A stretch of 22,722 nucleotides of DNA from Eledone cirrhosa (lineage: Eukaryota), in NCBI GenBank assembly GCA_964016885.1, contig CAXHJY010000484.1, positions 1-22,722 on the forward strand, read 5' to 3'. Positions 3,301-18,180 of the stretch are shown in pieces (within the stretch, counting starts at the first letter, position 1; every line of letters begins with the position of its first letter). The position numbers and the translations under genes were made by a program. The notes beneath the pieces were generated by a model that searched no databases, was not told where the DNA came from, and saw nothing but the letters and a program-made list of their open reading frames with translations.

Positions 3301-6300
3301 TCATCATCATCATCATCAACGTTTAACATCCGTGTTCCACGCTTGCATGGGTTTGGACGGGGGTAGTCCCACTTGAGGCAAGAGTGATTGTCTTGCTCGC
3401 ATAGGACTATCTGGCAGGTTTTCTACAGTTGGATGCCCTTCCTAACACCAACCACATTTACAGTGTGGGTCTGGGAGGTTTTTACCGTGTTGCCTACACG
3501 GCCACATTACAGCGTGGACTGTGTGTTTTTTTGTCGTGACACCTACACGATCTCATTTGTTTCGGCCCGGATGGCGCGGCACCAACATAACTTTACATAG
3601 AACGGGGTGGTGTGGGGGGGTGGGGGTGTATTTTGTTAGAGATGCCTACTGGCTGTAGTAGGTGCCTATTTAGGTAAAGCGGGTCTTCTCTGTTACTGAG
3701 TACCGCCAAAGGTCTCGGTCCAGTGACATTGTCTTGGTGAGGTGTAAGTGTGTGAGGTCGGAGTTTTAGTGGGTTTTACTATGTATTTAGGTAAGGCGGG
3801 TCTTCTCTGTTACTGAGTATCGCCAAAGGTCTCGGTCCAGTGACATTGTCTTGGTGAGGTGTAAGTGTGTGAGGTCGGAGTTTATCAGCTCATCCCATGT
3901 TTTTCTAGGTCTGCCTATTCCGTGGCTACCGTCTATCTTTATTGCCCTGCACTTTGTTATACAGCTATCGACTTTCATGCGCATCACGTGTCCATACCAA
4001 CGCAGCCTTCTCTCGAGTAAACAACATCTGATCCCTCTTATCTCTAATTTTTTCCTTAGTTCGTTTATGCTTTGCCGTTCACAGTATATTACTGTTACAC
4101 ATCCAGCGGAGCATGCAAGCTTCGTTCCTCTCTAGTCTGCGTATATCCTCTGCACACAATGCCCAGGTCTCACTGCCATGCAACATTGCTGTTCGTATGC
4201 AGGCATCGTACAACCTGCCTTTCATTTTTAGGGAGAACCCTTTAGCAGCTAATAGTGGTATAAGCTCTCTGAACTTTTTCCAACCAGTTCTGACTCTAGC
4301 TACTGTACTTTCAGAGCACCCTACCCCACTGCTGATTTTATCGCCCAGGTAACGGAAGCTGTCCACTATTTCTATAGAACCCTCTGCGCAATTGAAAGAG
4401 CTAGTATTTTGTGGGCACTTGCTGCTACTTATTGCACCAGAACACCGGCCACATGTAAAATCTATGTTCTTAGTTAGCTTACCTGTGATCCCACTACATC
4501 TTTTATGCACCCATACTTTGCATTTAGGACATCAAATGGAGTTTCTACCTACGCCTTTCCTACACACCGAGCACGACCATTTCCCAGAAGGGACCGCCGC
4601 CTTGTTTTCTTTCCTACAAACTAGAACTTTAGTCTTAGCCAGGTTAATTTTAAGTCCTTTTGACTCTAGGCCGTGCTTCCATGTTTGGAATTTCTTCTCT
4701 AGCTCGGCCATTGATTCCGCTATGAGTGTCAGGTCGTCTGCGTATAGGAGTTCCCATGGGCAGCCGGTCTTGAACTCCTCTGTTATAGCCTAAAGGGCAA
4801 TAATAAATAGTAGGGGGCTGAGAACAGAGCCCTGATGGACGCCAACTTTTACGCTAAACTCTTCACTATATTCGTTGTTAATTCTAACCTTGCTGACTGT
4901 TTCTTTATACATGGCTTGTATAGCCCTCACAAGCCATTCGTCAACGCCTAGTTTTCTAAGAGCCCACCAGATAATGGAGCGGGGGACTCTGTCGAAGGCT
5001 TTCTCCAAGTCGACAAAAGCTAAGTAGAGGGGTTTACCTTTAGCTAGGTACTTCTCCTGTAGTTGTCGTACAATGAAAAGAGCGTCTGTGGTACTTTTGC
5101 CTGACACAAACCCGAACTGCATTTCATCTAGGTCAATTCTCTCTCTGATTAGTTGCGCTATTACTTTTTCAGTGACCTTCATGACCTGGTCGATTAATTT
5201 AATGCCTCTATAGTTACTCCTATCTAGGGCGTCTCCTTTACCCTTATAACAGTTAACGATGATGCTGCTATGCTAGTCCTTCGGAACAACCCCATTCTGT
5301 ACGACTTGGTTAACTATACGGGTGACCATGGTGTGTCCCACCGTGCCAGATGCCTTCAGCATCTCAGCAACTATTTCCGAAGGCCCAGCCGCCTTACCCG
5401 CCTTCATATCCTTGATTGCCTTACTTATTATACTCCCCTCGACTAACACTGCTGGTCCCTCTGTTGGGTCGATATGGGGGAGACTGTCTTTCTCCCATTT
5501 ATTCTCCTCATTTAGTAGCTTTTCATAGTGACACTTCCAAGCTACCTTCTTATCAGCGTCGGTGATGGCAAGTATGCCATCATCGTTAAGTACACACTTC
5601 TCCCCGACAATATCACGGTTTTCCTTGACGCATTGCCTAGCAATCCTGAACACCTCACGTTTTTGGTCCTCGCGTTGTAGAACATGCTTGAACTTTCTTT
5701 CCTCAGCTTCCCTTCTTGCTAAGTACACTTGTCTCCTAGCTTCCCTCCTGGCCACTTGATAGTCTTCTCTACTTCCCCCATCCCGCCATACTTTCCAAGC
5801 CTGCTTTTTGGCCTTAATTGACCCCTCCACCTTACTGTTCCACCACCATGTTACTCTCCTCCTGCCTGCAGGCCTGCTCCAGCCACAGACTTCGTCTGTC
5901 GCCATCAGCAGGTTTGCTTTCAGAAATTCCCACTGTCCCTCTATATTGTCCGACTCTAAATGTTCTTCCTTACTGTCGAAAGCATCAAGTAATATGCTTT
6001 GAAATTTATTTCTGGCTGTGGGGTCCTTTAGCTTCCATATTTTTCTCCTGAGGATAGTCCTCTTCTGCTGTCGAGTACGTCTCGTCCTGACTATGAGGTC
6101 GCTAATTATCAGTCTATGTTGGGAGGTGCATTCTTCATGGGGGAGGGATTTAGTGTTTACAACAGACACTCTGTCACGTCTTCTGGTAAGGATATAATCT
6201 ACCTGGCTTGTGTGTTCCCCGGATCTATAGGTGATCAGGTGATTGTCACGTTTTTTGAAGTTAGTGTTACAGATAGTTAGGTTATTTGCATCACAGAATT

Positions 6301-6430
6301 CCAGGATTCTGGAGCCTTCCTCATTTCTAGTACCAAACCCATAGCCTCCATGGATTTCGTCGTAGCCGTCACAATGTTGTCCAACGTGACCATTTAGGTC
6401 GCCTGCAATAATTATATAGTCACTGTCGGA
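3301..6430 (-). mobile_element. RTE-clade LINE, 5'-truncated, with (GAT)n tail
   Basis: APE motifs ([24 protein letters not shown]), RT motifs (FVDLEKAFDRVPR, GVHQGSVLSPLLF, ELLYADDL, FRYLG), C-terminal RLRWYGHVMR...GRPRKTW, 3' UTR with AGGAAGGGCATCC, GATGATGAT tail at 3301-3318. Confidence 0.95.
3787..6430 (-). pseudogene. Disrupted RTE endonuclease/reverse transcriptase ORF
   Basis: In-frame stops at 5273-5275 (TAG), 4790-4792 (TAG) and 4532-4534 (TGA), plus a frameshift near 4080. N-terminus lost in the (TA)n tract. Confidence 0.9.
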
Positions 6431-6483
6431 TACATATATATATATACATATATATATATACATATATACATATATACATATAC

Positions 6484-6532
<49 letters not shown>

Positions 6533-6542
6533 CATATACATG

Positions 6543-6715
6543 TAAAGTTATATTTAAAATTGTTGGGTTACAACTAGTAAATATTTATAACTGATATAAA
6601 AGCACTCGACAAATATTTGGAGTATATTTACAATATTAACATGATATCCCCGAAATATATATAATGAAATAAATATGGTTTTATAAATATAGTTTTCCAT
6701 TTATTTAATATTGTA
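6543..6715. mobile_element. Penelope-like terminal fragment (family B) with inversion; only the 3' half of the HHR is retained
   Basis: Matches 7933-8028, 9785-10204 and 22061-22310. Contains CCCCGAAATATATATAATGAAATA and short inverted TACAATATTAA/TTAATATTGTA. Confidence 0.65.
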
Positions 6716-11736: not shown

Positions 11737-12260
11737 GATTCCACGAATATGCGGTGATATCCGCGAATATGCGGTGGTTTCCACGAATATGCGGTGATAT
11801 CCGCGAATATGCGGTGGTTTCCGCGAATATGCGGTGGTTTGCGCGAATATGCGGTGGTTTCCGCGAATATGCGGTGGTTTCCGCGAATATGCGGTGGTTT
11901 CCGCGAATATGCGGTGGATTCCGCGAATATGCGGTGGTATCCATGAATATGCGGTAGTATCCTGCGGTGGTTTCCACGAATATGCGGTGGTATCCACGAA
12001 TATGCGGTGGTTTCCTCGAATATGCGGTGGATTCCGCGAATATGCGGTAGTTTCCACAAATATGCGGTGATTTCCACGAATATGCGGTGGATTCCGCGAA
12101 TATGCGGTGGTTTCCACGAATATGCGGTGATTTCCACGAATATGCGGTGGATTCCGCGAATATGCGGTGGTTTCCACGAATATGCGGTAGATTCCACGAA
12201 TATGCGGTGGTTTCCACGAATATGCGGTGGATTCCGCGAATATGCGGTAGATTCCACGAA
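11737..12260. repeat. 20-bp CpG-rich minisatellite (~26 copies)
   Basis: Unit CCGCGAATATGCGGTGGTTT with variants; one phase break near 11960. Confidence 0.97.
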
Positions 12261-12504: not shown

Positions 12505-12545
12505 TCTTTATTCTAATGAAGGACTAGCGTCCGAAACGTTAAGAC
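12505..12545 (+). ncRNA. Degenerate hammerhead motif (Penelope-type 3' remnant)
   Basis: CTAATGA-A-GGAC TAGC GTCC-GAAACGTTAAGA. Core has a G>A change relative to CTGATGA; helix I is weak. Confidence 0.5.
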
Positions 12546-12625
12546 CCTCTTCCTGCTATTTCAAGCGTTAAACTAATATATTCCTTCTATATAATGTACC
12601 AACTGTGTTATTTCTGTTTACCTTT

Positions 12626-12660
<35 letters not shown>

Positions 12661-12662
<2 letters not shown>

Positions 12663-12835
12663 GTTATTCCGGGTTGAGTCGGAGGTAACCACAGTAAGTA
12701 AGGTACTCAATACATTGCAGAGTATAAAAGTTATAATATAGATGAGATTCTACAGGACTAGAACTGTTTCATTCTTTAGAAATGATTCCCGATGATTTCT
12801 AAAGAATGAAACAGTTCTAGTCCTGTAGAATCTCA

Positions 12836-12884
<49 letters not shown>

Positions 12885-12977
12885 TGAGATTCTACAGGAC
12901 TAGAACTGTTTCATTCTTTAGAAATGATTCCCGATGATTTCTAAAGAATGAAACAGTTCTAGTCCTGTAGAATCTCA

Positions 12978-13020
<43 letters not shown>

Positions 13021-13109
13021 ATTCTACAGGACTAGAACTGTTTCATTCTTTAGAAATGATTCCTGATGATTTCTAAAGAATGAAACAGTTCTAGTCCTGT
13101 AGAATCTCA

Positions 13110-13140
<31 letters not shown>

Positions 13141-13246
13141 GATGAGATTCTACAGGACTAGAACTGTTTCATTCTTTAGAAATGATTCCTGATGATTTCT
13201 AAAGAATGAAACAGTTCTAGTCCTGTAGAATCTCATCTATATTATA
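12661..13246. mobile_element. Penelope-like terminus followed by four tandem ~105-bp hairpins separated by (TA)n, each overlapping an HHR
   Basis: Hairpins at ~12732-12846, 12881-12990, 13019-13120 and 13139-13246. Confidence 0.8.
13058..13106 (+). ncRNA. Type I hammerhead ribozyme (also 13184-13232; CCGATGA variants at 12784-12832 and 12926-12974)
   Basis: GATTC-CTGATGA-T TTC TAAA GAA T-GAAA-CAG TTCTAGTC CTG-TA-GAATC: helix I GATTC/GAATC, helix III ACAG/CTGT, GUA triplet. Confidence 0.8.
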
Positions 13247-14069
13247 TATATATATATATATAGTAGCTGAGGTACCCAGCTTCACCAAGGTTAACAAATG
13301 ATAAGAGAAGACCAACAGAAGAGAAAACGTCTGTATTGAATGTATTGTCTTGTTTACAGTGTGTGTGTGTTTGTGTATATATATGTATGTGTGTATATAT
13401 ATATATGTGTGTGTGTGTGCCTGTGTGAGTGTTCATGCGTGTGTGTGTAAACCACCGCTGGAATCGGAGACATAGGCCGCGAAACACGATCATCACTGAC
13501 AACGAACTCGCAGAAAGAATCCCTTATGGTTGATTCCCAACCTGCTAGAAATAGCAGACAAGTTGGTTAGCATACGTGGTATGTCTTTCCTCTTCTTTGG
13601 TGTTATAAAATTAGTATCAATAAACTTTCCTGGATATACTCTTATCCCAATCCTGTACATACTTTCCGATTGTCACTTTTCGTTTTTTTCGTGTGATACA
13701 TGAAGGAACCAACCAATAAACATCTCTCTTTTATATTATGTATAGGTTACTATATCTCTTTTATTTGTTCATTCAAAATATTTTTCAGCTAATTCTGTCG
13801 TACAATATACATCAGCAATCGTTATCTAATGTTTAAAACATATGAATAGCTGCGATATATGCACCATATCAATCAAAAAAGATATGAGAATTGAATACCA
13901 TACTAAAGCGCCAGTAAGCTTGCTAAGAACCTGCAGATAGAAATGTTAATAAATACATTTGATTTGGGTAAACTTTAACATGTTCTTTCATTGTAGGTTT
14001 ATTTTCTCCTCCTCTCCTCTTCCTTCTTTATCTCTCTCCTTCTCTCTCTCTCTCTCTATATATATATAG

Positions 14070-16553: not shown

Positions 16554-18180
16554 TACATTACTCTATATATACTATTATATTTACATGGTAAAGTCTTTAT
16601 CTCACATAACACTTACATTACTCTGTATATACTATTATATTTTCATGGTAAAGTCTTTACCTCACATAACACTTACATTACTCTATATATACTATTATAT
16701 TTACATGGTAAAGTCTTTATCTCACATAACACTTACATTACTCTATATATACTATTATATTTACATGGTAAAGTCTTTATCTCACATAACACTTACATTA
16801 CTCTATATATACTATTATATTTACATGGTAAAGTCTTTATCTCACATAACACTTACATTACTCTATATATACTATTATATTTACATGGTAAAGTCTTTAT
16901 CTCACATAACACTTACATTACTCTATATATACTATTATATTTACATGGTAAAGTCTTTACCTCACATAACACTTACATTACTCTATATATACTATTATAT
17001 TTACATGGTAAAGTCTTTATCTCACATAACACTTACATTACTCTATATATACTATTATATTTACATGGTAAAGTCTTTATCTCACATAACACTTACATTA
17101 CTCTATATATACTATTATATTTTCATGGTAAAGTCTTTACCTCACATAACACTTACATTACTCTATATATACTATTATATTTACATGGTAAAGTCTTTAT
17201 CTCACATAACACTTACATTACTCTATATATACTATTATATTTTCATGGTAAAGTCTTTACCTCACATAACACTTACATTACTCTATATATACTATTATAT
17301 TTTCATGGTAAAGTCTTTATCTCACATAACACTTACATTACTCTATATATACTATTATATTTTCATGGTAAAGTCTTTATCTCACATAACACTTACATTA
17401 CTCTATATATACTATTATATTTTCATGGTAAAGTCTTTACCTCACATAACACTTACATTACTCTATATATACTATTATATTTTCATGGTAAAGTCTTTAT
17501 CTCACATAACACTTACATTACTCTATATATACTATTATATTTACATGGTAAAGTCTTTACCTCACATAACACTTACATTACTCTATATTTACTATTATAT
17601 TTTCATGGTAAAGTCTTTACCTCACATAACATTTACATTACTCTATATATACTATTGTATTTTCATGGTAAAGTCTTTACCTTACATAACACTTACATTA
17701 CTCTATATTTACTATTATATTTTCATGGTAAAGTCTTTATCTCACATAACACTTACATTCCTCTATATTTACTATTATATTTTCATGGTAAAGTCTTTAC
17801 CTCACATAACATTTACATTACTCTATATATACTATTATATTTTCATGGTAAAGTCTTTATCTCACATAACACTTACATTACTCTATATTTACTATTATAT
17901 TTTCATGGTAAAGTCTTTACCTCACATAACACTTACATTACTCTATATATACTATTATATTTTCATGGTAAAGTCTTTATCTCACATAACACTTACATTA
18001 CTCTATATTTACTATTATATTTTCATGGTAAAGTCTTTATCTCACATAACACTTACATTACTCTATATATACTATTATATTTACATGGTAAAGTCTTTAT
18101 CTCACATAACACTTACATTACTCTATATATACTATTATATTTTCATGGTAAAGTCTTTATCTATCATAATTATCTCACAT
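16554..18180 (+). repeat. 60-bp tandem satellite (~27 copies) derived from the piggyBac-type MITE
   Basis: Unit TACATTACTCTATATATACTATTATATTTTCATGGTAAAGTCTTTATCTCACATAACACT matches the MITE subterminal region at 20117-20173. Confidence 0.97.

Follow-up and report, generated by a model that had tools for sequence, protein, structure and literature searches.

At positions 12661 to 13246 of the window, that is, the whole 22,722-nt stretch of Eledone cirrhosa DNA analysed here (GenBank assembly GCA_964016885.1, contig CAXHJY010000484.1), lie four tandem hairpins, each of which holds a hammerhead ribozyme motif and is set apart from the next by a TA-dinucleotide microsatellite, (TA)n. The window makes up an entire unplaced 22.7-kb contig of a 3.0-Gb genome. 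The array probably represents four copies of one promoterless fold-back insertion of a Hydra-clade Penelope-like element (PLE), formed in (TA)n from run-off complementary DNAs (cDNAs) and duplicated in place; most likely it has no function and is probably debris, not an RNA switch. A first-pass annotation, made from the sequence letters, had described four near-perfect tandem hairpins, and these are present in the assembled sequence, with 11-nt loops and arms of 39-52 bp. As to the extent of 12661..13246 that it gave them, the four units stand, whereas 12662-12729 proves to be the tail of the element and the left arm of the third copy is shorter than in the other units. The features are as follows, where +1 of the element is the first base of hammerhead helix I:

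12629..12661, no strand: (TA)n target microsatellite, left flank; members of the family end in (TA)n
12662..12729, minus strand: 68-nt tail, element +67..+134, present only once, on the long arm (blastn to the full-length copy L102; bimodal 3' ends)
12730..12783, minus strand: continuation of the long arm, which is the left arm of hairpin 1, element +66..+13
12784..12844, plus strand: short arm of unit 1, element +2..+62, with the hammerhead at 12784-12832, U4C at 12790 and a predicted cut after 12827
12878..12986, plus strand: unit 2, with left arm 12878-12925, short arm 12926-12986 and U4C at 12932
13019..13118, plus strand: unit 3, with shortened left arm 13019-13057, short arm 13058-13118, canonical core and a predicted cut after 13101
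13136..13244, plus strand: unit 4, with left arm 13136-13183, short arm 13184-13244, canonical core and a predicted cut after 13227
about 12845-12877, 12987-13018 and 13119-13135, no strand: (TA)n spacers
13245..13262, no strand: (TA)n right flank

The loops begin at 12784, 12926, 13058 and 13184, the perfect arms of hairpins 1 to 4 measure 52, 48, 39 and 48 bp, and successive cores lie 142, 132 and 126 bp apart. One unit has a predicted fold of -76.5 kcal/mol (z = -19), a value that none of 200 shuffles equalled. The long arm, on the minus strand of 12662-12783, corresponds to element +13..+134 with the 68-nt tail included, while the short arm, on the plus strand of 12784-12844, corresponds to +2..+62; units 2 to 4 are the hairpin again, without the tail. 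As a pattern in the sequence, the insertion is a palindrome centred on the hammerhead with a tail on one side only, and this tail, which lies outside the hairpin, may be the interval between two reverse-transcription start sites. The left arm of hairpin 1 lacks both the 5' strand of helix I and CUGAUGA. When the whole window was compared with Rfam, the array gave only sub-threshold matches to microRNA hairpins. At 12733 the long arm carries A where other copies have T, by which the palindrome extends into the right-hand (TA)n; possibly this is a quasi-palindrome correction.

The family to which the insertion belongs is large. Its 31-nt core has 7,745 exact matches genome-wide and the 21-mer 3' of the cleavage site has 12,934, while 3,247 tight fold-backs, a count that takes in related subfamilies, are centred on the 5' part of the hammerhead. 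Longer copies hold, in order, a promoter-like region, the hammerhead, a leader and an open reading frame (ORF) of about 758 amino acids (aa), and a search with the protein gave 150 scored matches, 91-100% identical, of which several lie in frames of about 758 aa. Each of the 16 long-frame loci fetched has an ORF of 750-834 aa in which YxDD and IVY..YIG motifs occur, together with a CxCX5C linker, CxxC and CxH; RWR and DKT are present in 14, the other two being 5'-truncated, and the full set of RWR, DKT, YxDD, CxCX5C, GIY-YIG-like motif, CxxC and CxH is likewise found in 14. The hammerhead lies directly upstream of the frame in 11 of the 16, and no CCHH motif was seen by eye in copy L102. It has been published that RWK, DKT, CxCX5C, CxxC/CxH and a GIY-YIG-like C-terminus are features of the Hydra clade (Craig et al., 2021, PMC8557442; this and other papers are cited from those parts of them that were available), and two further characters of that clade, a hammerhead in the terminal repeat and insertion into (TA)n, both occur here. 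Judged by these motifs and by visual likeness to the alignment in the supplement of that paper, the parent is a Hydra-clade PLE. The Pfam match to GIY-YIG is weak (E = 0.036, under the cut-off), and in one copy, whose first 502 aa were compared, Pfam reported no reverse transcriptase (RT) family. Both hammerhead and protein differ, by eye, from Hydra-1_Obim as printed in the same supplement, and the best database relatives of the protein are 44% identical over the full length or 53% identical over 77% of it, so that on sequence comparison the element is a separate family, young and abundant. The parent was reached via locus L036; a Hydra-like peptide adjoining locus L022 was treated as a lead only. 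In L102, the region 3' of the ORF holds a stop codon and then a long microsatellite-rich stretch ahead of any terminal repeat.

It had been noted in the first-pass annotation that the loop and right arm of each unit contain the parts of a hammerhead, and indeed helix I (GAUUC/GAAUC), CUGAUGA, GAAA, helix III (ACAG/CUGU) and a GUA site are all there. Its description of the cores is also borne out: the type I core (CUGANGA, GAAA, NUH, three helices) is canonical in copies 3 and 4, and copies 1 and 2 have C in place of U at core position 4 (U4C; 12790 and 12932). The proposal that this part folds as a full hammerhead holds for the inventory but not for the energy, as the predicted minimum-energy fold of the isolated 49-mer is a different one (-6.0 versus -2.6 kcal/mol). 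Helix II consists of 3 bp atop a U.U pair instead of the usual G10.1-C11.1, and the Rfam gathering scores are missed (13.5 versus 56.3 bits for RAGATH-1-hammerhead, 12.3 versus 48.5 bits for Hammerhead_3). In a hand-picked set of 13 subfamily variants, 94.7% of cells are paired, two base pairs of helix I have changed in both partners, helices II and III are near-invariant, the core is kept and loop II is free to vary; since the variants are related by descent, the compensatory changes lend modest support. Taken as sequence, the motif is supported as a real hammerhead type.

The ends of the arms were mapped on contig C1 for an unselected set, the first 100 places at which the post-cleavage 21-mer matches exactly. 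Their 3' ends are bimodal, at about +66 and about +134: 29 lie within 4 nt of +66, 55 lie 66-80 nt farther, 13 fall between and 3 run into the ORF. Their 5' ends pile up at the start of helix I, with 47 in -6..+13 (19 of these at +1..+3), 11 in -99..-7, 8 in +14..+40, 4 at +42..+44 and 30 past -100. Not one of the 100 arms begins at the cleavage site (+46), on which ground that site is rejected as the origin of the fold-backs. When arms are joined head to head, a long arm is paired with a short one in 12 of 13 cases, or in 11 of 12 once a duplicated locus is removed (p = 0.002 against independent choice). The arm that reaches farther 5' is the short one in five pairs and the long one in five, with two ties; thus often neither arm contains the other, and the insertion in the window, whose arms start at +13 (long) and +2 (short), is such a case. 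Arms of this kind would not come from one self-primed cDNA, unless the centre later lost sequence. A miniature inverted-repeat or other DNA transposon was also considered as the origin and is rejected, because the outer ends differ and both map to the leader of a retroelement. At about 1440-1500 of locus L023, a fold-back junction holds about 60 nt that are the reverse complement of the DNA flanking the insertion, a match that suggests a template switch onto target DNA.

Copies that run farther upstream point to a putative promoter. In 32 distinct copies of this kind, picked for a TATA-like word at -45..-20, that word lies at -29..-31 in 28, drawn from several subfamilies, CCAAT lies at -84 or -85 in 21, and a pyrimidine-purine step is found at -1/+1. 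As the units of the array begin at +2, the promoter of the element is absent from it. The Penelope element of Drosophila virilis has been described as having a TATA-less internal promoter and a 75-bp intron 46 bp past the start (PMC2377424), so the arrangement in the Eledone family is not the known one. A second sign comes from the base at -1 in (TA)n-joined arms that start at +1, where a hand count made genome-wide gave, out of 97, 65 with G, 19 with the native C and 13 with A; at +7, taken as a control, G was counted by hand in 1 of 40 (Fisher p = 3e-13 versus +1). In assembled reads, too, joints show G or GA 5' of the short arm. As a source of this G, what microhomology in helix I might leave of the inverted arm was considered too rare (about 5 of 100 listed joints), and the G comes after many different bases. 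In L1 and SVA, an untemplated 5' G has been ascribed to copying of the cap (PMC3287187), and the sequence makes a copied cap the likely source of the extra G here. Together, the two 3' sites, the 5' pile-up, the excess of G and the mixed pairs indicate that each hairpin is likely to consist of two run-off cDNAs joined head to head.

A sequence of events can be proposed in which the TATA/CCAAT promoter in the terminal repeat would launch transcription from the first base of helix I, and the RT-endonuclease would nick both strands of a (TA)n target, from which one cDNA would be primed at about +134 and a second at roughly +62 to +66. Both cDNAs would then cross the uncleaved hammerhead to the 5' end of the RNA, often copying the cap as an extra base, and their ends would be trimmed and joined head to head, giving a hammerhead-centred palindrome with the tail on one side only. 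Finally, the hairpin and its (TA)n may have been duplicated to four by slippage or unequal exchange, with the point change in the loop arising on the way. The nicking step has a precedent in vitro in another clade, where the Poseidon protein PAc of Anolis was found to nick as well as extend both strands of an AT-rich target, with two RT start sites, both internal, that delimit the tail and with uncleaved RNA as template (Frangieh et al., 2024, PMC11167929). These traits would be shared with the Eledone family, and the two systems differ in that PAc uses the same start sites on both strands; head-to-head products, a start at helix I and a cap-derived G are not among the results reported in the available part of that paper.

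Several points weigh against this account. The assay with PAc, owing to the same start sites on both strands, does not alone predict a long and a short arm (PMC11167929), and the start site and the cap are deduced from DNA. The promoter count is conditional on the presence of a TATA-like word, while the 100-arm sample represents one region of one chromosome and required an exact 21-mer. The control at +7 is an internal and probably trimmed join, which makes it an incomplete control for additions at run-off, and R2 junctions made in vitro hold non-templated G and T (PMC13000458), so that an RT can add G without a cap and the extra G marks the end of the RNA more firmly than the cap. The junction in the window, which starts at +2, has no extra G. 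Genome-wide, most arms that carry the start of the hammerhead continue upstream, 7,269 matches having the native upstream bases as against 1,097 with other bases, by which run-off at +1 is one outcome and not the sole one. Loss of sequence at the centre of a palindrome after insertion could also mimic pairs in which neither arm contains the other.

A wider scheme may be built on the same start at +1, though we put it forward only tentatively. Here a dimer of the enzyme would prime one cDNA per target strand at the two fixed sites in the 5' leader, giving two strong-stop-like products; where both run off on reaching the cap, the result would be a miniature palindrome, and where one jumps to the identical stretch at the RNA's 3' end, the product would be a partial-tandem pseudo-long terminal repeat (pLTR). 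The hammerhead would act in this scheme as a decapping switch, taking off the first 45 nt, and not as a site of unit-length processing. Retroviral minus-strand strong-stop DNA is a short cDNA that is made from a primer site near the 5' end of the RNA and runs off at the cap. In the Eledone family, by comparison, nicked genomic DNA would prime at two sites and the palindrome would integrate, with neither a tRNA primer nor an LTR integrase. If true, the scheme would place a retrovirus-like step of strand transfer in Penelope and explain tails, inverted repeats and pLTRs together.

Among the alternatives to two joined cDNAs, the one that survives best, although we regard it as improbable, accepts the same element and the same debris and has the hairpin made by self-priming on one strand, with later deletions at the centre of the palindrome. 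Palindromes at the inverted junctions of rotifer Penelope elements have been so interpreted, with an antisense template (Arkhipova et al., 2013, PMC3846280), and many junctions in the Eledone family use short microhomologies within the hammerhead. Self-priming, however, predicts neither the non-native G that the sense strand has at -1 (65/97 versus 1/40), nor two fixed sites on the sense RNA for both outer ends, nor the pairing of a long with a short arm in 12 of 13 cases.

The next possibility, that the family and the single hairpin are real and the four-fold array is an artefact of assembling palindromic DNA or merged alleles, is likewise of low probability. It is favoured by the window being a whole unplaced contig, by the difficulty of assembling palindromes and (TA)n and by the failure to find a second, allelic copy of the locus on a chromosome; a match on contig C24 was tried as such a copy and rejected, as it has only about 85-115 bp of a repeat in common and is a different locus. 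In assembled contigs from four runs and in restriction-site-associated DNA reads from three samples, other members of the family dominate and none spans the array, which, with the missing second copy, keeps this possibility at the level just given. On the other hand, the units differ in a nested manner (C,C,T,T at the core position, the shortened arm of unit 3, the lengths of the spacers), and all loops have the same orientation, where fold-back of reads would make them alternate. Similar short arrays of the same hairpins also lie on large contigs, independently at L127/L128 on C7 and at L132 on C27, and on C1 too; one of the arrays at L127, L128 and L132 has (CT)n spacers and two different junctions.

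If the array is real, its four units come from one founder, because its junction occurs at 10 places genome-wide, four of them in the window, and the C variant occurs only in the window. Joints of a right arm to a left arm with 30-60-nt spacers number 19 genome-wide, of which three are in the window, and growth is likely to have proceeded by slippage or unequal exchange at the common TA-rich ends. The stepwise duplication that the first-pass annotation had read from the shared U4C change is therefore sustained as regards a single founder (junction and C variant), whereas more than one order of events would do: C,C,T,T is compatible both with duplication step by step and with conversion.

We see very little chance that the array is a functional RNA device, either a ribozyme silenced by its antisense arm or a source of double-stranded RNA (dsRNA) or small interfering RNA, as the same annotation had suggested, the latter here taken as directed against the element. 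Either strand, if transcribed, would give about 46 bp of perfect duplex matching the 5' leader of the element, and the antisense left arm would, as had been claimed, block the hammerhead, whose helices have pair probabilities of 0.0 in the full unit. The two folds do not alternate, however: the full hairpin reaches -76.5 kcal/mol against -14.6 kcal/mol for the best fold that contains the hammerhead, and this gap of about 62 kcal/mol leaves no bistability and no switch. On the plus-strand RNA the blocking arm precedes the hammerhead and is transcribed first, which also speaks against a conformational switch, and the minus strand lacks the CUGAUGA core. Nor does a purpose-built dsRNA source fit, given that the units have no promoter and that the same architecture has been mass-produced by retrotransposition in thousands of copies (the 3,247 fold-backs); two of the four cores are mutated and the neighbourhood consists of other repeats. 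According to the fold predictions, the hammerheads of the array, if transcribed, would be buried in the hairpin, and their silencing is an accident of origin; read-through transcription could yield incidental dsRNA.

An equally slight chance attaches to the idea that the pile-up of ends at helix I marks a 3' splice site and not a start of transcription. A T-rich tract ending in CAG lies upstream of the hammerhead, and an intron of D. virilis Penelope has been described as stopping at the 5' edge of helix I (Cervera and de la Pena, 2014, PMC4209133). A spliced exon would, however, begin at +3 and follow an upstream exon that is always the same, and no such constant sequence is seen; the arms retain AG and gain G, and subfamilies that start with GGCTT lack AG at that place yet keep TATA at -30.

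Least probable of all is a non-LTR retrozyme, in which a multimeric or circular RNA would have served as template for tandem hammerhead units. In outline, the published definition of the metazoan retrozymes (PMC7229834; 10.64898/2026.07.22.740005) covers type I hammerheads of Penelope origin that stand in tandem in a Penelope-rich genome. The units here, however, are palindromic, microsatellite-spaced and locally duplicated, measure 126-142 bp and so fall under the reported 170-400 nt, and include (TA)n that varies as well as an antisense arm by which cleavage is blocked; their junction is found at 10 places with no dispersed family, arrays being rare (19 joints). A U.U pair at the foot of helix II is likewise described for axolotl HHR_Amex2. 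Elsewhere in the window, a retrozyme-like 480-bp tandem repeat at 1669-2922 (2.6 copies, 96% matches) has an internal microsatellite and carries, at 2144 and again at 2624, a type I hammerhead of another kind, with a short palindromic helix III and a GUA site; this motif is also found twice, 472 bp apart, in locus L105.

To return to two head-to-head cDNAs as the preferred origin of the hairpins, much of what surrounds them is already published, namely the Hydra elements, their hammerheads, the targeting of (TA)n, the inverted copies and the one-sided tails. With the elements of Craig et al. (2021, PMC8557442) the Eledone family shares RW(K/R), DKT, CxCX5C and a GIY-YIG-like C-terminus with CxxC and CxH, as well as the hammerhead, insertion into (TA)n, inverted truncated copies and a tail at one end. 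It differs from them, so far as they are described in the available text, in the length of the tail (30-40 nt there, 68 nt here) and in that miniature hammerhead-centred palindromes are a major product. Head-to-head inverted repeats and palindromic junctions, with a TATA/initiator-like pair in one pLTR, are likewise found in the Penelope pLTRs of Adineta vaga (Arkhipova et al., 2013, PMC3846280), and in Schistosoma PLEs paired hammerheads on opposite strands lie 100-700 bp apart (Cervera and de la Pena, 2014, PMC4209133). In the available parts of those papers self-priming on an antisense template is offered as the cause of these structures, or no explanation is given, whereas the ends mapped here point to two cDNAs of a sense RNA. 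In the literature searched, to which subscription papers and bioRxiv supplements did not belong, no report was found in which Penelope elements have run-off palindromes, a G of cap type or transcription starting at helix I.

The locus itself is ordinary and the array probably inert, and it is the family that is informative. It bears on how Penelope elements make their tails, inverted repeats and pLTRs and on what part the hammerhead plays; Craig et al. (PMC8557442) list as unresolved how tandem and inverted structures arise. Thousands of young palindromes provide a genomic read-out that suggests a capped, sense, uncleaved template with two primers per insertion and weighs against the published idea of antisense self-priming. 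With intact copies of 758 aa and a leader of 134 nt, the mechanism is directly testable in the existing in vitro assay. There is also a warning for annotation, in that hammerhead-in-hairpin motifs in such genomes are usually by-products of insertion and not switches.

Other repeats lie around the array. At 12505-12628, a degenerate minimal hammerhead from another very high-copy family (core CTAATGA at 12513) abuts the (TA)n that received the element, and a relative of it is also found 5' of the array in locus L132. On the minus strand at 3787-6547 lies a broken non-LTR retrotransposon with endonuclease and RT-like frames, a relative of which interrupts the Hydra copy in locus L061. Positions 13263-13362 hold the start of another dispersed repeat (40 scored matches, 95-100%), whose first bases, we presume, resemble Helitron-type 5' ends. 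Two further tandem repeats are a 20-bp minisatellite of 26.5 copies at 11739-12260 and a 60-bp array of 26.9 copies, with 96% matches, at 16554-18169.
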